The notes beneath the pieces are model-generated. The model worked only from the letters and a program-made list of their open reading frames with translations, was not told the origin of the DNA and searched no databases. A program made the position numbers and the translations under genes. Positions 4,797-64,000 of a stretch of 64,000 nt of DNA are shown piece after piece. Each line of letters opens with the position of its first letter. Within the stretch, counting starts at the first letter, position 1. Source of the stretch: Anaerolineales bacterium (lineage in GTDB: Bacteria; Chloroflexota; Anaerolineae; Anaerolineales; DRMV01); assembly GCA_026996855.1 (NCBI GenBank), contig JALWJZ010000016.1, forward strand, positions 567-64,566, in the 5' to 3' direction.

Positions 4797-4877
4797 ACCG
4801 GGTTTGGCGTCGAACTCGCAGGCGTTGCTCGTAGTATGGTAGGGTCGAGCCTCTCAGGGTTGATAAGGAGCGTGCCC

Positions 4878-5804
4878 ATGGACGAGGGAACCCGCTTTCT
4901 GCCCGTGACTGCGGAAACGCCCATTGCACCCACGCTGGGTGTGTGGGAGAAGTATTTGGAGGAAGAGGGCCGTTCGCCGTATACAATTCGAGGTTTCGTG
5001 AGCGATTTGCGGCTTCTGGCCACTTTCCTTTCGCCAGAACGGCCCGTGGGGCAGATCCGCCTCCAGGACCTGGAAGGCTTTCTGGAGTGGCTTCAGTATC
5101 GGCGCGGGGTGCCGTGCAGTCCCAAGAGCCTGGCCCGGCGCATTACCAGCATCAAGGCTTTCTTCCGGTGGTTGCACAAGTACGGCGTCATCGAGGCCAA
5201 CCCGGCCGAGCGTCTGGTGCAGCGTTCGGTGACCACCGCGCCGCCGCGCGCCCTCTTCCCCCGAGAAGTGTACACGGTGCTGGAAACCGCCCAGGCTTTG
5301 TGGACCGGCGCCGAGGCGGACCCGCGGCCTTACACCCTGTTTACCCTGCTTTACGCCACAGGCATGAAAAAAGGGGAAGTGCTCGGCCTGCGGACGAAGC
5401 ACCTGGTGCTGGACGGGCCGCAAGGGCCGTATCTGTTCGTGCGTTATCCCAAACCCAGCCAGCGGTACAAAGAGCGGCGTCTGGCCCTGCCTCACGCGTG
5501 GGTGCCGGCCTTCGAAGCGTACCGGAAGCGGTACGCGATTGTGGACCGGCTCTTCCCCTGGTCACCCCGTAACGTGGAGTACGTGCTGGAAAACCTGGGC
5601 AAGGCCGCGGGCCTGGAGCGCCGGCTTTCCTTCGTGGTGTGTCGGTGGACGGCTGCTCTGCGGGATTGGCGCAACGGCATGGAACCGGAAGCCTTGCGGG
5701 AAAAATTGGGCCTTTCACCGGTGCAATGGAAGGACGTGGCCCGGAAACTGGCCCTTTTGGATGCCACCGTGCCCAAGGACGAACCGTATCCCGAACTGGA
5801 TTGA
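4878..5804 (+). CDS. tyrosine-recombinase (XerC/D)-like protein with degenerate active site
   Basis: The SAM-like N-domain (SPYTIRGFVSDLRLL..SIKAFFRWL) and the LLYATGMKKGEV box resemble Xer. ATG at 4878 has AAGGAG at 4865-4870. Catalytic positions appear substituted (see findings). Confidence 0.7.
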   Translation: MDEGTRFLPVTAETPIAPTLGVWEKYLEEEGRSPYTIRGFVSDLRLLATFLSPERPVGQIRLQDLEGFLEWLQYRRGVPCSPKSLARRITSIKAFFRWLHKYGVIEANPAERLVQRSVTTAPPRALFPREVYTVLETAQALWTGAEADPRPYTLFTLLYATGMKKGEVLGLRTKHLVLDGPQGPYLFVRYPKPSQRYKERRLALPHAWVPAFEAYRKRYAIVDRLFPWSPRNVEYVLENLGKAAGLERRLSFVVCRWTAALRDWRNGMEPEALREKLGLSPVQWKDVARKLALLDATVPKDEPYPELD

Positions 5805-11194: not shown

Positions 11195-12108
11195 ACCAAG
11201 GGCGCTCCGCAGCGATGGCAATAGTGGGCGTCCGGCAGGCTCCGGGCGTGGCAAACGGGACAGGCGCGGACCTTACCCGGGCGGCCGCGTTTTCTACCGC
11301 GGGTCGGTTGGGACCGTTCTTTCCACCATACCCAACCTGCCATGCCCAACACCAGCAGGCCCAGGCCCGTCAACACCCAGGGCAGGTAGGTGCTCCAGGC
11401 GGCCTTCCACCAACCCGTATCCGGTTTCGCTTCCGGGCCGGGTGGCGTCTGGCCCACTTTTTGTTGGGCTTCCAGGTGTTCCACGGTCAGGACCTCGTCG
11501 GGTTTGTGGTAGCGGATTTCCACTTGCAGGGGCGTGCCTTTGGGCAGAGACCCCAGGTCCTTCTCGTACATCTCCAGGCCGAAGTCCGTGGCCCCAATGG
11601 GTTCCAGGGGTGGATGCACCTGCAAGTCCGTTGCGTTCCAGGGTTTTTGCACGTGCACGATGAGCCGGTCCACTTCCAGGTCACCCGGCCATTCGTGGAC
11701 GAAGGAACGGAGCGTGCCCTCTTTTTCCAAAGCCGGGTCGTAGTATTCCACCTGTACATAGGGCTGCTCTACCTGAATGTGGAGCCAGGCCCAGGGACTG
11801 CCGGCATCGCCTTGATACTCGTAGGCTGCGTTGATGAGCGTTTCATCGGGGGAAGGGGCATGGGCCACCGCGTGGGGCCGTCCGGCCCGGGTGGGAATGC
11901 GTAGCGAAAGCCTCCCGGGCAGGGTCGCGTCCGGGGGCAGGGTGATGCGGTAGATGACCAGCATGGCCGGACGGTCGAACTCCGGCCAGAATTCCATGCG
12001 CAACAGCGCCACCCGTTCCAGGGGCGGTGTTTCTGCCCGGGGGAATAGGACCTGAGCGGCCCCTGTGAACAGGAGAAGCGCTGCCAGGCTCAAGAGAACA
12101 CGTTTCAT
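11191..12108 (-). CDS. signal-peptide protein with a single C-proximal TM helix and a cytoplasmic zinc ribbon
   Basis: MKRVLLSLAALLLFTGAAQ signal peptide, TM segment YLPWVLTGLGLLVLGMAGWVWW, and tail CPVCH..YCHRCG. ATGA overlap with the Nudix stop. Confidence 0.6.
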   Translation of the reverse strand: MKRVLLSLAALLLFTGAAQVLFPRAETPPLERVALLRMEFWPEFDRPAMLVIYRITLPPDATLPGRLSLRIPTRAGRPHAVAHAPSPDETLINAAYEYQGDAGSPWAWLHIQVEQPYVQVEYYDPALEKEGTLRSFVHEWPGDLEVDRLIVHVQKPWNATDLQVHPPLEPIGATDFGLEMYEKDLGSLPKGTPLQVEIRYHKPDEVLTVEHLEAQQKVGQTPPGPEAKPDTGWWKAAWSTYLPWVLTGLGLLVLGMAGWVWWKERSQPTRGRKRGRPGKVRACPVCHARSLPDAHYCHRCGAPLV

Positions 12109-12653
12109 GGCTTGGCCTCCAGGGTTTGGAGATAGGGAAAGGCCAGAAAAAGGGCTGCCAGGGTTTTGCCGTCCTGGATTTCCCCCTCGCGCACCATGTG
12201 CCACACCTGGGGCCAGGGCAAGGCCACGGGTTCGATGATTTCGTCCGAATCGTGTTCCAGCGGCGCGGGCTTGAGTTGTTGGGCCAGATAAGCGACAATT
12301 TTCTCCGTGGTGTAGCCCGGTGCGGGGTAAAGGCTTCCCAAGAAGGCCCATTCCAGGGCCATGAAGCCAATTTCCTCTCGTAATTCCCGTTGGGCGCACA
12401 CCAGGGGGTTCTCCTCGGGTTCCAGGGTGCCGGCCGGAAGTTCCAGGAGGGTTTGATTCACTGCATAACGATACTGCCTGGTGAACCAGATGTTCCCCTT
12501 TTCGTCGATGGGCAAAATGAGCACCGCTCCCCGATGCTCCACGATATCCATGGTGGTTTCCCGGCCGTTGGGCAATCGGATGCGGTCCTGACGAAGCCGA
12601 AAAACTCGACCTTCAAAGAGCACCCGGCGTTCCAGTACATCCACCTGGGTCAT
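12105..12653 (-). CDS. NUDIX hydrolase (ADP-ribose pyrophosphatase-like)
   Basis: Nudix box GTLEPEENPLVCAQRELREEIGF. Confidence 0.85.
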   Translation of the reverse strand: MTQVDVLERRVLFEGRVFRLRQDRIRLPNGRETTMDIVEHRGAVLILPIDEKGNIWFTRQYRYAVNQTLLELPAGTLEPEENPLVCAQRELREEIGFMALEWAFLGSLYPAPGYTTEKIVAYLAQQLKPAPLEHDSDEIIEPVALPWPQVWHMVREGEIQDGKTLAALFLAFPYLQTLEAKP

Positions 12654-12716
12654 GGTTTTGCTCCTGGGGAAAGAAGGTCCGTCGCCGCCATGAGGGTCTG
12701 GTCGGGGTTCGAAGTG

Positions 12717-12725
12717 ATATTACCA
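12717..12725 (-). promoter_or_regulatory. candidate extended -10 (TGGTAATAT) for the Nudix/zinc-ribbon/SEDS operon
   Basis: The minus strand reads catGGTAATATcac about 65 nt upstream of ATG 12653. No good -35. Confidence 0.3.
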
Positions 12726-12877
12726 TGCTTTGGGGAAAGGGAAAAACCGGGTTGTCCTTGACGCATCGGTCCTCTGCCTGGACACGTACCTGGGATGCGG
12801 ATGCAAGGATGACCAAGATGACGTTGTCCCAGCGGGATGGCAATGAGAAAGGGCGGCTCAAACCGCCCTTTTTACGT

Positions 12878-12990
12878 CCGGTTCCAGGGGCCAGGTGGCA
12901 TGGGGCGTCACATACCGTACCTGCCGCATCCGGTATTCGTACACCGTGCCGTAGTAGGTGTGCACCCGGATGAGGTCGCCCCAGCGCGGT
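12878..12990 (-). pseudogene. orphan sortase-domain fragment (no start; homologous to 13664-13775 of the giant gene)
   Basis: Reverse translation gives RWGDLIRVHTYYGTVYEYRMRQVRYVTPHATWPLEPD, against RWGDIIRVHVYGTVYEYQVRQVRYVPPHATWPLEPI in the intact gene. Flanked by hairpins at 12851-12868 and 13000-13020. Confidence 0.7.
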
Positions 12991-13000
12991 ATCTAAAAAG

Positions 13001-13520
13001 GGGCGGCACAAAGCCGCCCCTTTGTGCTGCCACTTCACCTTCACCAGCACCATCCGCACCACGGTGTGGTTTTTGAAAACATCGGTGGCCTCGTCGTACG
13101 CACCTCAGGTGAGCAGGGTGGGCCAGGCGTAGCCGGAAAAGTAGCGGCTTTCATGGCCGCTACTTTTTCCCTATCAGCACCGCCCGCACCACCACGTGGT
13201 TCTTGAAACCGCCCGTGATTTCGTCGTACTGGCCGTAGGTGAGCAGGGTGGGCCAGGCGTAGCCGGAAAAGTAGCGGCTTTCATGGCCGCTACTTTTTCC
13301 CCATCAGCACCGCCCGCACCACCACGTGGTTCTTGAAACCGCCCGTGGCTTCGTCGTACTGGCCGTAGGTGAGCAGGGTGGGCCAGGCGTAGCCGGAAAA
13401 GTAGCAGCTTTCATGGCCGCTACTTTTTCCCCATCAGCACCGCCCGCACCACCACGTGGTTCTTGAAACCGCCCGTGGTTTCGTCGTACTGGCCGCAGGT
13501 GAGCAAACTGGGCCAGGTGT
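13001..13520 (-). repeat. four tandem 130-bp orphan modules, each the last 33 codons of the sortase domain plus stop plus terminator hairpin
   Basis: Exact 130-bp period: ggccaggcgt/ggccaggtgt at 13121, 13251, 13381 and 13511, then aaccaggtgt at 13641 in the intact gene. A fifth unit (13521-13650) is the real 3' end of the 13550-18673 gene. Confidence 0.9.
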
Positions 13521-13549
13521 AGCCGGAAAAGTAGCGGCTTTCATGGCCG

Positions 13550-16500
13550 CTACTTTTTCCCTATCAGCACCGCCCGCACCACCACGTGGTTTTTGAAACC
13601 GCCCGTGGCTTCGTCATATTGCCCACAGGTGAGCAAAGTCAACCAGGTGTAGCCGTCGTCTATCGGCTCCAGGGGCCAGGTGGCATGGGGCGGCACGTAG
13701 CGCACCTGCCGCACCTGGTACTCGTACACCGTGCCGTACACATGCACTCGGATGATGTCGCCCCAGCGCAGGGTGTGAATCTGCGCGAAGGGGCCGGGCA
13801 GGCCCGAAGGCAGCCAGTTGTGCGCGGTGAGCACGCTGTTCCCCTGCCAGCCGGGGAAGGCGGTGTTGGTCATCCAGGCCACATCGGTCAGCCAGGTGAG
13901 GTCCGCGGTGGGCTCGACACCCACGACTGGCGCCTCCACGCCCAGGCGGGGGATTTCCACCCACACCGGTCCCAGGTTCTGGTAAGGCAGCCGCGCCGGC
14001 GCGGCCGGGATGCGGGTCACCCGGCCCGGCGCGAAGCCCGTCTTGGGCAGGGGCGGCGGATAGGCCCGGGTGGGGTCGTCCGGCTCCGGCGTGGTGGGGT
14101 CGTCGGTGAGGGCAGGGGTGTCGTGGTCCACGTTGGCGTCGCCGGAGCCGACGGTGCCATCGCCGTTCTCGTCCCAATGGGCCAGGCCCTGGTTTTCCAC
14201 GTAGGCCGGTGCTCCCTCTACCTCGGTCTGGAAGGAGACGACCAGCGCATGGGCCGCGTCATGGGGATCGGTCACGCCCGGGTCCGGCGCGAGGTCGGCT
14301 TCTACTTCAATGTGTCCCGTCGTTGTATTGTAGGTGCAAACGTGCACCACGGTGGCGCCCTGCCCGGTGCAGGTCAAACTCCCGGGCACGTAGCGGGTGT
14401 TGGCCGGAATGGGGTCCGAAATCTGCACCCGCAAAGTTGTGGCGTTGCTGTTGTTCACCCATATCATTCGCCATATCAGCAGGGGCCAACCGTCATCGTC
14501 CACCGTTTTCCAACTCTCGGGTGGGTCGAAGAGGGTGGTTGCTTGAGCGGTCGCGTAATCGTCTTCGCGTGGGTCCCAGTTTCCCGGTGTGCTATCGGGG
14601 TCGGGTTGGTCGGCCGCGGTGATCTCGGCCACGTTGAGGTGCTCCCCGGCCCGGACCGTGGCCTGGAAGGTCAGGGCAACGCTTTCCCCGGGGTTCAGTC
14701 GGTCCACGGTCCAGCGCAGAATGGGCGCGGCGCTCTCGTCGGGGGTGATGACCGCTCCGGTGCTGCCGGGGTCGCCGCCGATGCTGCCGACGACGTAGGT
14801 GTAACCGTTGGGCAGGCGGTCCTCCACCTGCACCTGGGTGGCGTCGGAAGGCCCGTCGTTGCGCAGGGTGAGGGTGAACGTCACGGTGTCGCCGGGCTCC
14901 GCGGTGGTGGGCGTCACGCGCTTGGTCAGGCTCAGGTCCGCGCTCTGGGCCACCGCGGTGTCTTCGCTGGCGGTGTTGTTGTCCGTGTTCGGGTCGGGGG
15001 TGGTGGCGCTGACCTGGGCGGTGTTGGTCAGGGTGCCGGTGGCGCTGCTGCTCACCTGCACGGTGACCTGGCAACTGGCATGGGCGCCGTTCGCCAGGCT
15101 GCCCACGTTCCAGGTCCAGGTGGCGCCGCTCACGGAGCCACCGCAGGTGTCGCTCTGGTAAGAGACGTCCGCGGGCAGGGTGTCGGTGACGGTAACGCTG
15201 CTGGCATCGCTGGGGCCGTGGTTGGTCACGGTGAGGGCGTAGGTGAGGGTGCTGCCGGCGGTCACGGGGTCGGGGCTATCGGTTTTGGAAATGCTCAGGT
15301 CCGCGGCGGCCTGAATGGTGAGGACGTAGTCCTCCACTTCCCCATCTCGCATGGCCCCTGTGGGAGCCGAAGCGTTCAAGTTGGGGTCGGTGGAAAGGCG
15401 CAGGCGCAGGTAGGTATCGCCGGCCACCAGGCCGGAAAGGCCGCTCCAGGTCAGGGTCACGGTGCCCGCGGTGCCGTTGGGCACGGTCTGGCTCGCGGCC
15501 TCGGCGGGCTCGAAGGTGCCGTCCCGGTCGAAGTCCACCCAGCCCACCAGGGTGGCGTCCCGGCCCGTGTTGTTGGTGACCTGCACATCCAGGCTGTAGG
15601 AGGTCATGCCCTGGTGCAGGGGCGGCAGGGTGCTCACGCCGTCTTCGTCGTCGATGCCCGTTCGGTCGTCGCCGTCCGCGTTGGGGCCGTGGAGCGCGGG
15701 GTTTTCGCTGTCGGGCGGCGCGGCGCCCAGGTGCAGACCGCCCACCACGCCGTGGGCCGGATCGCCATAGCCCGCGGGCGCGTCGCCCCGGTCGCTGGTG
15801 ACCGCAATGTTGGGCCCGAACTCCGAAGTATTGCCGTCCGCGTCGGTGGCCGTGGTGGTGATTTCATCACCCAGACTCAGACCGCTCACGCCGGTAATGG
15901 TGCAGGCGAAGGCCCCGTTGGTCCCCAGAGTCACCGTGCAGGAACCCAGGTACTCGGCGCCCTCGCCGTGGGGCACGCGCTGGCCGTCCCCGGCTTCCAC
16001 CTCGCCGTCTTGGTTCGCGGGGTCGTTGTCGGCCTTGAAGACCTCGAGGGTGAAGGTGCCGCTGAGCCATTGGGCGGCCCGGTTGCTGCCGATGTAGCCC
16101 CACAGGTGCAGATCGGTGCCCACCAGGACCGCAGAGGTTAGGATGGGGTAATCCACCCCCCGGTTGCCCAGGTCGGGGTCCAGCGCGCCGTCGTTGGCCG
16201 TGACTCCGTCCCCCGGAGGTGCACTGGGGCTGCGGTTGGCCAGGTCGATACCCAGGTGGGCGTTGTCGTACACATGGTTTTGAGTCAGGGTGTTGCCGTG
16301 GGCGGCACGGTCTTCGGTGTTCACATAGATGCCCACGGTATTTCCGTACACCAGGTTCTTGCGCACGGTCACGCCCGAGGCGCCCTTGCGAATCATGATG
16401 CCGGCCAGGGCCGCGCCGTAACTGGTATTGTTCTCGATGAGGGTGTTGGTGGGCGGCTGGCCCGCGGAGCGGGAACCCACCTCGATGTTGCTTCCGCCCC

Positions 16501-54908: not shown

Positions 54909-56005
54909 CTTCGCTCATGCACATATTCCACGACAAAGGCCACCTGGTCCGGGTCGGTTTCGGGAAGCACACCGTGGCCCAGGTTGAAGATGTGGCCTGC
55001 CTGGCCTCGGGCTTCTGCAAGCACCGCATCCGCCTGGCGGGCCAGTACCTCCCGTGGGGCCAGCAGGGCCACCGGATCCAGATTCCCCTGGATGGCGTGG
55101 TGGCCTCCAACCGCCTCCCAGGCCGCGCCCAGGGGTACCCGCCAGTCCACGCCGATGACCTCCGCATCCAGGTCATGGAAAAGGGGTAGCAGGCCTGCGG
55201 TGCCGGTGGAAAAGTAAATTCGAGGGACGCCCGTCACTTGCAATCCCCGCAGCAGGGCCTGGACGTGGGGTTTCACATAACGGGCATAGTCCCCAGGACT
55301 CAGGGCACCGGCCCAACTGTCGAAGATTTGCACCGCCTGCGCGCCGGCGTCGATCTGGGCCTTGAGGTAATCCAGCGTGACGCGGACCAGCCGCTTCATG
55401 AGGGCGTCCCAGGCCTGGGGATGGTGGTACATCCAGCGTTTGGTCTCGACGTAATGGCGGGAACTCCCGCCCTCGATGGCATAAGAAGCCACGGTGAAGG
55501 GCGCGCCGGCAAAGCCGATAAGGGGCGTTTGGGGGGCTTCAAGCCGTACCCGGCGCACCGTCTCGAAAACGAAGCCCAGGGCTTCGTGCACGTCCACCAG
55601 GGGGAGGGTTTCCACCCGGTCCGGCGTCAGGCGGGGTTCCAATACCGGGCCGCGCCCTTTCTCAAAACGCAACCTCAGCCCCAGCGCTTCCAGTGGAAGC
55701 AGGATGTCCGCGAAGAGGATGAGGGCATCCACGCCCAGACGCAGGGGAAGCAGCGTCACCTGGGCGGCCAGGTCGGGCTCGCGCATGAGTTCCAGCAGGC
55801 CGTAGCGCTCCCGCAGCGCCCGGTATTCGGGCATGTAACGCCCGGCCTGCCGCATGAACCACACCGGCGTGTAGGGTGTGGGCTGCCGATAGCACGCGGC
55901 GAGGAAGGGGGGAAGGCGGTCGGCGGACAGCGGACGGCGGACGGCGGTCGGCTGTCGGCTGTCAGCGGACGGCGGTCGGCGGTCGGCCGTTGGCGGTTTC
56001 AGCAT
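54884..56005 (-). CDS. hemE: uroporphyrinogen decarboxylase with a repeat-encoded N-terminal extension
   Basis: TPVWFMRQAGRYMPEY..SWAGALSP. The only SD-preceded start (GAGGAGG, ATG at 56005) lies upstream of 30 array-encoded codons. Confidence 0.9.
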   Translation of the reverse strand: MLKPPTADRRPPSADSRQPTAVRRPLSADRLPPFLAACYRQPTPYTPVWFMRQAGRYMPEYRALRERYGLLELMREPDLAAQVTLLPLRLGVDALILFADILLPLEALGLRLRFEKGRGPVLEPRLTPDRVETLPLVDVHEALGFVFETVRRVRLEAPQTPLIGFAGAPFTVASYAIEGGSSRHYVETKRWMYHHPQAWDALMKRLVRVTLDYLKAQIDAGAQAVQIFDSWAGALSPGDYARYVKPHVQALLRGLQVTGVPRIYFSTGTAGLLPLFHDLDAEVIGVDWRVPLGAAWEAVGGHHAIQGNLDPVALLAPREVLARQADAVLAEARGQAGHIFNLGHGVLPETDPDQVAFVVEYVHERSSPLSADG

Positions 56006-56112
56006 TCGTGTTCCTCCTCATGCATTCGCTCACTGCTGATGGCTGACTTGCTGACTGCTGATTGCTCACTGCCGTCTGCTCACCGCTGACCGCTCACTGC
56101 TGACCGCTGACT
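55912..56112. repeat. 13-unit G-rich array, 26-nt core with the hemE SD and ATG, then 12-unit C/T-rich array
   Basis: gtcggcg gacagcg gacggcg .. (55912-56002), and ctcactg ctgatgg ctgactt gctgact gctgatt gctcact .. (56029-56112). Confidence 0.9.
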
Positions 56113-57410
56113 GCCCCAAACGCTTCCCGCGCCGCCTCCAGCGTGCGTTCCAGGTGCTCCTCCTCGTGGGCCAGGGACATGAACGCGGATTCATACTGGG
56201 AGGGCGGGTAATAGACCCCACGGGCGGCCATCTCCCAGAACCAGCGGGCGAAACGCTTCGTGTCGGCCTGGCTCACCTCTTCCCATGTGGTGGGCGCGCG
56301 GTCCAGGAAGAACACGGTGAACATGGTGCCCACGTGCTGCACGGTGACCGGGACGCCCGCCTCTTCCGCCGCCTGCGCCAGGCCCTGGGCCAGCCGTTGG
56401 GTGCGGGCTTCCAGCGTCTCCCATACCCCCGGCTCCCGCAGGGCATCCAACGTGGCGATGCCCGCAGCCATGGCCAGGGGGTTGCCCGAAAGGGTCCCGG
56501 CCTGGTACATGGGTCCTGCCGGGGCCACGTAGCGCATGATGTCTTTGGGGCCGCCGTACGCGCCCACAGGCAGCCCGCCGCCAATGACCTTGCCCAAGGT
56601 GGTGATGTCGGGCCGGACGCCATAGCGCGCCTGCGCGCCGCCCAGGGCCACCCGGAACCCCGTCATGACCTCGTCGAAGATGAGGAGCGCGCCGTAGCGG
56701 TCGCACAGCGCGCGCAGGCCCTCCAGGAAGCCCGGTTGGGGCGGCACCACGCCCATGTTTCCGGCCACCGGTTCCACGATGACCCCCGCGATGTCCTGGC
56801 CATGGGCTTCGAAAAGGGCTTCTACCGCGGCCAGGTCGTTGTAGGGTGCGGTCAGGGTGTCCTGGGTGGTGCCGGGGGTCACGCCGGGGGAATCGGGCAG
56901 GCCCAGGGTGGCCACGCCGGAGCCAGCCCGAACCAGGAGCGCGTCCACGTGGCCGTGGTAGCACCCGACGAACTTGACGACTTTCGTCCGGCCGGTGACC
57001 GCGCGGGCCAGGCGGATGGCGCTCATGGTGGCTTCGGTGCCCGAATTCACGAAGCGCACCATTTCGATGGAAGGCACCATCTCGATGACCCGCTCCGCGA
57101 GGTCGATTTCCAGGCGGGTGGGCGCGCCGTAAGACGTACCCCGTTCCGCAGCCTGCTTCACCGCTTCCACCACTTTGGGGTGGGCATGCCCCAGGATGAG
57201 GGGTCCCCAGGAGAGCACGTAATCGATGTAGCGGTTACCGTCGGCATCCCACAGGTAGGGGCCCCGGGCCTTTTCGATGAACAGGGGGACGCCGCCCACG
57301 GCGCGGAAGGCGCGGGCCGGGGAATTTACCCCACCCGGGATGACTTCCTGGGCCTTCTCGAACAGGCGTCGGGACGTCTCCACGCGTAAAGGTCGGGTCA
57401 GGGCTTCCAT
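56094..57410 (-). CDS. hemL: glutamate-1-semialdehyde 2,1-aminomutase
   Basis: [33 protein letters not shown] at 57410 follows GAAGGAGGAG. Confidence 0.95.
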
Positions 57411-62891: not shown

Positions 62892-63059
62892 GAAGTGGAC
62901 AGTGGACAGTGGTCAGTGGTCAGTGAACAGTGAACAGTGGTCAGTGGCGGTGGCGGTCGGCAGTCGGCTATCTGCTGTCTGCTATCTGCTGTCGGCTATC
63001 TGCTGTCTGCTATCTGCTATCTGCTCACTGCTGACGGCTGTCCGCTGACCGCTCACTGC
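62892..63059. repeat. 24-unit heptamer array in one uninterrupted register (hemD 3' end / hemB upstream)
   Basis: gaagtgg acagtgg acagtgg tcagtgg .. agtcggc | tatctgc tgtctgc tatctgc tgtcggc .. tgaccgc tcactgc. Confidence 0.95.
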
Positions 63060-64000
63060 TTCTACCAGTCCTTCCATGGTGTACTGCTGGGCCACGGCGT
63101 GGACGGGCAGGCCGGCCTCGCGCGCGGCCCGGGCGGTGATGGGGCCGATGCACACCACCCGCACGCCGGGCGGCAGGGGCCGTCCCCCCAGGGCCTGGAC
63201 GAAGCCCTGCACCGTGGACGGGCTGGTGAAGGTCACCACGTCCACCTCGTCCAGCGGGGGCGGCGTATCGGGCGGGGCCACTAAGGTGCGGTAGGCCACC
63301 ACCTCGTCCACCTGGGCGCCCCGGCTCTGGAGGATTTCCCGCAGCGTGGGCCGGGCCCGGTCGGCCCGGGCCAGCAGGATGCGCAACCCCCGCACGTCGC
63401 CCAGGGCATCGGCCAGGGCTTCGGCCACGTAAGCCGGGGGGATGAGGTCCGGCTCCCGGCCCTGGGCCTGTAAGGCCTTCGCGGTGGCGGGGCCGATGAC
63501 GGCGATGCGGACGTCCGCGGGCACTCGCAGGCCCAGGGCCTGAAGTCGGTTCCACACGAAGCGCACGCCGTTGGCCGAGGTCAAGACCAGCCAGTCGTAC
63601 CCGCCCCGGCTCAGGCGGTGCAGGGCCTGGTCCAGGGGTCCCCAGTTTTCGGGCGGCGCGATGCGGATGGTGGGGTAGAGCACAGGCTCGTACCCTGCCT
63701 CCCGCAGGCGGGCCAGCCATGCCTCGGCCTGCTCCGGGGGCCGGGTGATGAGGACGCGGAGCGGACGGCGGTCGGCAGTCGGCAGTCGGCTGTCCGCTGT
63801 CGGCTGTCCGCTGACCGCTGCCTGCTGACCGCTGCCTGCTGACTGCGCACTGCGCACTGCGGACTGCCCACTCCGCACCTGCATCGCCAATTCCCGTCCC
63901 AACCCCTCCGCTTCCTCCATCGGGGCCTGGCCCCGGACGCGATAGGGCGTGCCGTCGGCCGCGACGTACAGGGCGGTGAGGGTGAGGGTTCCTCCCTGCA
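62982..64000 (-). CDS. hemD: uroporphyrinogen-III synthase, continuous with a HemC (porphobilinogen deaminase) C-terminus through a repeat-encoded linker; 5' partial
   Basis: LRVLITRPPEQAE..WLVLTSANGV..VTFTSPSTV is HemD. The frame stays open upstream of M at 63920 to nt 64000 (..TLTALYVAADGTPYRVRGQAPMEEAEGLGRELA, HemC-like). Confidence 0.8.
   Translation of the reverse strand, partial: QGGTLTLTALYVAADGTPYRVRGQAPMEEAEGLGRELAMQVRSGQSAVRSAQSAGSGQQAAVSGQPTADSRLPTADRRPLRVLITRPPEQAEAWLARLREAGYEPVLYPTIRIAPPENWGPLDQALHRLSRGGYDWLVLTSANGVRFVWNRLQALGLRVPADVRIAVIGPATAKALQAQGREPDLIPPAYVAEALADALGDVRGLRILLARADRARPTLREILQSRGAQVDEVVAYRTLVAPPDTPPPLDEVDVVTFTSPSTVQGFVQALGGRPLPPGVRVVCIGPITARAAREAGLPVHAVAQQYTMEGLVEAVSGQRTAVSSEQIADSRQQIADSR
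63756..63881. repeat. 18-unit heptamer array translated as the hemC-hemD linker
   Basis: gcggagc ggacggc ggtcggc agtcggc agtcggc tgtccgc tgtcggc tgtccgc tgaccgc tgcctgc tgaccgc tgcctgc tgactgc gcactgc gcactgc ggactgc. Confidence 0.9.

Follow-up and report, generated by a model that had tools for sequence, protein, structure and literature searches.

A probable recombination-prone array of decaying gene-end and terminator duplicates downstream of a sortase-domain adhesin gene in an Anaerolineales bacterium

In the 64,000-nucleotide stretch of Anaerolineales DNA analyzed here (contig JALWJZ010000016.1; hereafter the window), a minus-strand gene encoding a giant adhesin with a C-terminal sortase domain is followed by four further copies of its own end: the last 34 codons recur head-to-tail at an exact 130-bp period, and the series closes with a fragment of the same domain. 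We consider it probable that this array is a recombination-prone set of decaying, pseudogenised duplicates of the 3′ end of the gene and its terminator, built on an older, displaced end of the same gene, and that ordinary homologous recombination among its repeats, without dedicated machinery, keeps reshaping it. The features that define a tandem array of this kind were all observed, namely a constant period with a repeated junction, copy-number differences between strains, chimeric breakpoints, and decay of the copies at a pace consistent with neutrality.

Organization of the array

The live end of the gene is designated u0, the downstream units u1 to u4, and the closing fragment frag (Table 1). 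Tandem Repeats Finder reports 13045-13635 as a repeat of period 130 with 4.5 copies, 92% matches, no indels, and a score of 958, which makes it the sole long-period repeat within the window, and the five units aligned in register have a mean column identity of 91%. The same junction, TTTTCC/GGCTAC, recurs between units, and the codon that is by homology that of the sortase catalytic cysteine reads, from u0 to u4, TGT, TGC, TAC, TAC, and TGA. A preliminary description of this locus, made from the sequence alone, had given the 130-bp period, the coordinates of these codons, and the translated peptides, all of which were recovered upon recomputation, as was the finding that frag duplicates the part of the sortase domain lying before the repeated segment. 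It had also placed one and the same terminator on all four further copies; this hairpin, here T1, is indeed present on the three extra units u1 to u3, but u4 ends in a different hairpin, T_anc. Within the individual units, the 5′ end of u1 resembles the old orphan unit of other strains while its 3′ end resembles the live end. One open reading frame (ORF) spans the array region and has no Pfam match.

Table 1. Coordinates of the adhesin gene end, the array units, and adjacent features in the window
Feature	Position	Strand	Description
NUDIX gene	12105..12653	-	Co-directional, downstream of the array; anchor for finding related strains
T3	12848..12873	-	Terminator-like hairpin AAAAGGGCGG-TTTGA-GCCGCCCTTT, directly after frag
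frag	12879..12987	-	84% copy of 13664-13769 (RWGD...PLEP); common to all related strains
T_anc	12995..13023	-	Terminator-like hairpin GGGGCGGC-TTTGT-GCCGCCCC followed by a T5 run; matches the L001 hairpin
u4	13024..13133	-	Old displaced 3′ end, WPTLLT-stop, tail VLVKVK; found in all related strains
u3	13134..13263	-	Orphan unit WPTLLTY, with Ala to Ile, followed by T1
u2	13264..13393	-	Orphan unit WPTLLTY (Cys to Tyr), followed by T1
u1	13394..13523	-	Orphan unit WPSLLTC, followed by a T1 whose stem carries one change compatible with a G-U pair
u0	13524..13654	-	Live 3′ end (GYTWLTLLTCGQYDEATGGFKNHVVVRAVLIGKK-stop) and T1 hairpin; predicted catalytic Cys codon TGT at 13625-13627
Live gene, 1707 aa	13550..18673	-	Signal peptide, beta-helix, GEVED, DUF11 repeats, LPKTG, and C-terminal sortase domain (Pfam, NCBIfam)
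Sortase domain, aa 1572-1703	13565..13960	-	PF04203, 5e-20; LTAH His, LLTC Cys, and VVRAV Arg present
LPKTG motif	14036..14050	-	About 25 aa before the sortase domain; no transmembrane segment after the motif

Strain variants, or a cycle in the assembly graph, might in principle have been written out as tandem copies, but we consider such an artefact extremely unlikely. The copy number in the window does come from one assembly, and two Logan contigs of SRR13622958 (k=31), with 100% and 99.99% identity to the window, end at positions 13136 and 13586, i.e., exactly where the sequence common to the units begins at both edges of the repeat. Contigs that break precisely at the start of shared 28-30-mers are nonetheless what a true repeat is expected to yield, and these breaks fit one, while leaving the length of the array unconfirmed. 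In addition, the T1/GGCTAC junction and orphan units recur in separate assemblies and samples (L099, L101, L106, L107, L109, and L110), as does the old orphan in L093-L098, and sequence differences between the units, which reach 8%, occur in combinations that fall within the span of a 150-nt read.

Across 9.9 kb, the sole mismatch between the window and one of the Logan contigs, L083, lies at position 13592 (AAA vs AAG). This site distinguishes repeat units and also differs among the live ends of other strains, and the mismatch could represent conversion, a polymorphism, or the assembler's choice.

An older gene end downstream of the live one

All homologues of the adhesin were found in metagenome-assembled genomes of Anaerolineae or Chloroflexota, at ~50% identity and with the active-site consensus WLTLLTC. 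A protein search returned nothing above 54% identity, with full-coverage matches at 52% or less, and the exact 1707-aa protein is not on record in public collections; searches of JGI metagenome contigs with sortase-domain peptide patterns yielded no relative, and the T1 hairpin was likewise not found there. The closest homologue, L001, shares 85% amino-acid and ~73% nucleotide identity. Its flanking genes are unrelated to those of the window, so that it was rejected as a syntenic ortholog and used as an outgroup alone. L001 has a single 3′ end, ...VLVKVGDE-stop, followed by GGGGCGGC-CTTGGT-GCCGCCCC-TTTTT, and no array. Because the tail of u4 (VLVKVK..) and T_anc match this 3′ end and its hairpin, u4 and T_anc represent the old end of the gene, and the present tail VLIGKK and T1 are derived. 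For its part, frag has derived states in common with the live gene when L001 is taken as the reference, and keeps three ancestral states that the gene has lost, a mix indicating that it is an old duplicate (paralog) born within this lineage.

We also scanned 80 loci of the family, taken from species-representative genomes, for copies of their own 3′ end, and no tandem copy of a gene tip was detected. Nearly all extra matches were the inverted repeats of terminators; the others could be traced to a second sortase gene, a repeat at a contig end, a direct repeat of 26 bp, and a few short stretches that match at distances of kilobases. In the tabulated sequences of these relatives, leucine, isoleucine, or valine nearly always occupies the position at which the orphan units all carry a proline, and none of the 80 has a proline there.

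Copy number varies between closely related strains

Related strains were identified through exact look-ups of small neighbouring genes together with the members of the NUDIX protein cluster. Look-ups with P0055 and P0059 led to a more distant species in which the NUDIX gene follows leuD and no adhesin is present, and these were set aside. Six contigs at ~90% identity (L093-L098, from ENA, Logan, and NCBI) share a layout of live end, T1, old orphan, T_anc, frag, T3, and NUDIX gene, with 505 bp between the adhesin and NUDIX genes. In L099 and L100 (~96% identity), one extra T1-type unit is added to this layout and the intergenic region measures 634 bp, and in the window three extra T1-type units bring it to 896 bp. 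The live end of L109 is identical to u0 of the window and is joined straight to the old orphan; the number of T1 units per strain is one in L093-L098 and L109, two in L099 and L100, and four in the window. The connection in L109 is made by a T1 variant, CTACCTTTCC, which L099 carries on its extra unit, and the L109 haplotype looks like the product of a contraction. Further combinations of units are found in L106, L107, and L110, one of them with a 2-nt deletion in u4.

The adhesin gene is itself hypervariable in comparison with L082, L085, and L087, although the flanking genes are ~98% identical: just 17183-18664 matches, at 95%, and the remainder shows 67% amino-acid identity over 1007 aa.

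Chimeric units record exchange between the live end and the old orphan

The old orphan reads CCC (Pro) in all strains, and each T1-type orphan is composed of an old-orphan-like 5′ end, always including this CCC, followed by a live-type 3′ end and T1. The live-type sequence starts right after CCC in the extra unit of L099 and after CCC AGT TTG in u1 of the window, whose 5′ end (ACC TGG CCC AGT TTG) is that of the old orphan of L093. When u4 is compared with u2 and u3, there are no differences in the first 28 nt and 22-25 in the next 74 nt (P ~1e-4 for the difference-free block, and 0.002 for a run of this length anywhere). In the window, sequence of the u2/u3 type has taken over the first 28 nt of u4, ending with the base that precedes the A of TGA. 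Chimeric units of this kind are expected if the live end and the old orphan have undergone unequal crossing-over or gene conversion with each other, and their u4-type 5′ end accounts for the proline codon of every orphan. Moreover, every new unit reuses the pre-existing T1/GGCTAC junction, so that the young units call for no further microhomology event, and the microhomology-mediated origin that the preliminary description had offered as a mundane alternative becomes superfluous for them. Its suggestion that the modules recombine, on the other hand, is borne out by the mosaic of u4 with u2 and u3, by the old-orphan 5′ end of u1, and by the variation in T1 unit number between close strains.

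A different route to the same layout would be a serial displacement comparable to that of Rhs and contact-dependent inhibition (CDI) systems, in which new 3′ tips, brought in by horizontal transfer or recombination with diverged alleles of the adhesin gene, push each earlier tip downstream together with its terminator. In favour of this route, strains that are 98% identical elsewhere differ strongly in the adhesin gene (67% amino-acid identity over 1007 aa), u4 and T_anc constitute a displaced old end, and the extra unit of L099 resembles the GC-codon live end of the sister lineage, while in the current live end 9 differences are clustered within 33 nt; L025 has the 36-mer at this patch with 4 mismatches. 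We nonetheless find this route unlikely. Apart from the patch, hardly any differences separate the live end and T1 from the orphans, and the T1-type orphans all share the proline codon of u4 and the same junction, which is explained by unequal crossing-over and not by foreign DNA. All units also encode the same domain tip, and no cargo or immunity gene lies beside any of them. The parallel with Rhs/CDI displaced ends drawn in the preliminary description holds for u4, which is a displaced older end as judged from its match to L001, and breaks down for the accompanying genes.

Hairpins of the array

The T1 hairpin, GTAGCGGC-CATGAAA-GCCGCTAC, has four occurrences, one with a single mismatch, compared to 0 expected in shuffles; within the array it is confined to u0-u3, and it contains the stop codon of the gene. 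T1 (13531-13553 and its copies; 3704-3738 in L093) is a perfect 14-nt inverted repeat forming a 14-bp stem, the left arm of which is the end of the coding sequence itself, AAA AAG TAG CGGC, stop included (GAAAAAGTAGCGGC / GCCGCTACTTTTTC). That a perfect inverted repeat includes AAA AAG TAG suggests fold-back copying of the gene end, and T1 looks like a terminator made de novo by such a template switch. Fold energies of T1, T_anc, and T3 are -21.4, -25.2, and -17.8 kcal/mol, with z-scores of -4.0, -4.4, and -1.9, respectively, so that T3 is weakly better than shuffles. Although folding shows strong stems, a consensus terminator scan called none of the array hairpins, perhaps because A/U pairing lengthens the stems so that they take in the T-runs. 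Rfam gave no match at gathering score in the window, and only sub-threshold matches at chance level in 12400-13900.

Six hairpins lie in series on the coding strand, and this series could be a selected multi-terminator insulator, kept to prevent transcription of the adhesin gene from running on into the NUDIX-FtsW genes. Among the T1 copies there is almost no change (the single exception still permits a G-U pair), the stems of T_anc are the same between lineages while its loop and flanks have changed, and T3 displays a compensatory G-C to A-T change between strains by which its stem is kept. We judge this explanation of the array highly improbable, however, given that three hairpins suffice in L093 and L109, that copy number varies freely, that the coding part of the units is carried along and decays, and that the terminator scan called none of the hairpins.

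The loop of T_anc shows a further peculiarity. Between 13000-13020 of the window and ~3856-3876 of L093, the loop and closing pair of one lineage are the reverse complement of those of the other, bar one base (GC-TTTGT-GC in the window vs GC-GCAAA-GC in L093), which suggests a small hairpin-loop inversion. A candidate for one more degenerate relic after T3 (CGCTGGGACAACGTCATC) was rejected, as its alignment score of 21 compares with a mean of 19.2 and a maximum of 28 in shuffles.

Decaying relics and an intact live end

Between L093 and the window, identity is 84% for u4, 80% for T_anc, 88% for frag, and 84% for T3, compared to 86.5% for the remaining intergenic DNA and 90.7% for the third codon positions of the NUDIX gene. 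With a divergence that equals or exceeds that of synonymous sites, the old relics are not conserved as sequence, consistent with neutral decay. Orphans and relics of different strains have also accumulated private damage, including a 2-nt deletion, a GSSK sequence, and a stop within frag. The live ends, recovered in five haplotypes, are all intact and read WLTLLTC. As to transfer of cassette sequence into the expressed copy, a single synonymous site, 13592 (AAA/AAG), varies among them in line with the orphans.

The preliminary description had proposed that exchange between modules switches the sortase between active and inactive alleles. In such a contingency (phase-variation) locus, the live end and the defective cassettes would trade places reversibly, turning a cis-acting sortase off through Cys to Tyr or stop and Leu to Pro changes, and the giant adhesin would toggle between a wall-anchored and an unprocessed or released state. 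The modules do recombine, the array does differ between close strains, and the repeated segment carries the catalytic Cys and the conserved Arg region, i.e., two of the three catalytic residues; the sole mismatch between the window and L083 also falls on the paralog-distinguishing site 13592, which is polymorphic among live ends. Yet no switched live end was found in the related strains, a comparison that the preliminary description had itself advocated and which did reveal arrays of one, two, and four T1 units. The orphans carry the additional proline and damage private to individual strains, u4 and frag evolve at least as fast as synonymous sites, and the private synonymous changes of the live end around its Cys codon imply that no recent orphan conversion reached that stretch. 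A deletion-type crossover would, furthermore, be irreversible, nothing comparable occurs in the 80 other family loci, and no dedicated recombinase was seen in the annotated flanks. We therefore regard reversible switching as very unlikely, and find it slightly harder still to credit a working contingency locus that turns on and off within a population and in which the cluster of synonymous changes at the live Cys codon was selected to tune the recombination rate.

Several observations weigh against our interpretation of the array as a set of neutrally decaying duplicates in recombinational flux. The four-plus-one copy number comes solely from the window assembly, with the Logan contigs breaking at both repeat edges, and L099 and L100 may share a single assembly of origin. 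That the array changes is clear from the strain differences, and some of these changes may have been selected. Similarly, the retention of the T_anc and T3 stems while loops or flanks change may mean that the hairpins themselves are under selection. Finally, when the live end of the window/L099 lineage is compared with its sister live end, 9 of the 33 nt surrounding the Cys codon differ and the following 90 nt are nearly free of differences (binomial P 3e-4, Fisher P 7e-4), a pattern not predicted by simple neutral drift. This patch (13615-13648, codons 3-13) differs from the orphans too, and eight of the differences, in codons 5-13, are synonymous. The 36-mer mentioned above lies at position 6433 of L025, a distant member of the family, and the patch could be either a short imported conversion tract or the outcome of selection against homology with the defective copies.

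The adhesin and its sortase domain

The assignment of the C-terminal domain to the sortase family is supported by a PF04203 match of 71.9 bits for a cut-off of 26.6 and by a His, a Cys, and a VRAV Arg region conserved across the family; none of the class-specific sortase models of NCBIfam reaches its cut-off for the 1707-aa protein. In alignments with solved class C sortases, LTAH coincides with the catalytic His motif and TLLTC with TLVTC, and it is from this homology that the varying codon of the array is identified as that of the catalytic cysteine. An [LIV]Px[TS]G motif occurs at the place of LPKTG in 75 of the 80 family loci, and a long passenger upstream in 78 of them. LPKTG could serve as a cis-substrate, leading to self-anchoring, or as a pseudo-substrate lid. 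A search of one paper library for sortase fusions in Chloroflexota and for an LPKTG-before-sortase architecture found nothing relevant.

The AT-ending codons that the preliminary description had remarked upon in the intact copy are real (GC content at third codon positions of the stretch, 0.735). They are not exceptional for the gene, and the live end was rejected as a gene-wide outlier, 13.6% of the gene's 34-codon windows being equally low.

Neighbouring genes

Between 2.3 and 26.9 kb of the window, the annotated neighbours are housekeeping genes, and no reverse transcriptase or mobile element was found among the annotated ORFs. A diversity-generating retroelement was accordingly rejected as a source of the variation between units, the mismatches of which moreover involve all bases and are not adenine-specific. 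The sole recombinase in the annotated flanks is a Xer-like tyrosine recombinase (ORF 4836-5804, plus strand) with lon and a DUF3090 gene on its two sides. Related strains conserve this gene, which lies 7 kb from the array, and no tie to the array was seen. Farther away, 35625-63878 holds many short tandem arrays of 7-nt units (e.g., 55911-56114, 62894-63047, and 63766-63878), among them GGACGGC, GCTGACT, GTCTGCT, and AGTGGAC, some with super-periods of 14, 21, or 28 nt.

Discussion

The comparison with the outgroup and the related strains lends itself to a stepwise scenario. An old partial duplication left u4 with T_anc, and frag with T3, downstream of a new live end that stops inside the new hairpin T1, a state common to all related strains. 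T1 itself may have been made by fold-back (template-switch) copying of the gene end. In the lineage of the window, u4 and the live end then exchanged sequence by unequal crossing-over or gene conversion, which generated the chimeric units, and the array grew from one to two to four T1 units, with L109 as an apparent contraction. The relics meanwhile decay at a pace consistent with neutrality, their Cys codon turning into Tyr, stop, or Arg, with the 2-nt deletion and the stop in frag as further lesions, while purifying selection keeps the live end intact.

Bacterial tandem segmental duplications and amplifications are known to expand and contract by unequal crossing-over and gene conversion, and the array resembles them in its head-to-tail arrangement with an exact period, its copy-number differences, the chimeras at its edges, its reused junction, and the decay of its non-functional copies. 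It differs from them in that the unit is just 130 bp, comprising a gene tip and a terminator, and in that an older displaced end supplies the homology for expansion. The rhs and cdiA genes are likewise accompanied downstream by orphan C-terminal toxin/immunity modules, and here, too, promoterless 3′ fragments homologous to the main gene lie downstream of it, at least one of which (u4) is a displaced former end. Unlike those genes, however, the adhesin gene has no Rhs/YD-repeat or CdiA domain (Pfam and NCBIfam identify only beta-helix, GEVED, DUF11, and sortase domains), and its units are damaged near-copies of the same 34 codons, each followed by a hairpin, with no polymorphic toxin domains and no immunity genes. 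In the Neisseria pilE/pilS system, silent copies hold intact and diverse coding information that is donated to the expressed gene. The present array has in common with it truncated silent copies near an expression locus and evident exchange among copies; in contrast to pilS, these copies are degenerate (Pro at the L/I/V position, Tyr or stop at the Cys codon, and decay of the old relics consistent with neutrality) and no donation to the live end was seen. Finally, quasi-palindrome mutations, which arise by template switching, create perfect inverted repeats like that of T1, the left arm of which is the coding end. Such an event at T1 would differ from the usual outcome in having also made a working terminator and a duplication junction.

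The kind of array described here is already known, and the window provides a well-resolved new instance of it, in which a suggestive, switch-like variation of a catalytic codon is explained by an older displaced end, unequal crossing-over, and neutral decay. For the bacterium, the likely consequences would be several hairpins in series before the NUDIX gene and a standing risk that recombination leaves the sortase with a defective tip. Possibly more interesting as a lead than the array is the gene itself, with its passenger-LPxTG-sortase architecture. Overall, strains that are 90-99.9% identical and carry one, two, or four units form a natural series for the birth, expansion, and contraction of a partial gene duplication, which also illustrates how the last codons of a gene may give rise to a terminator.

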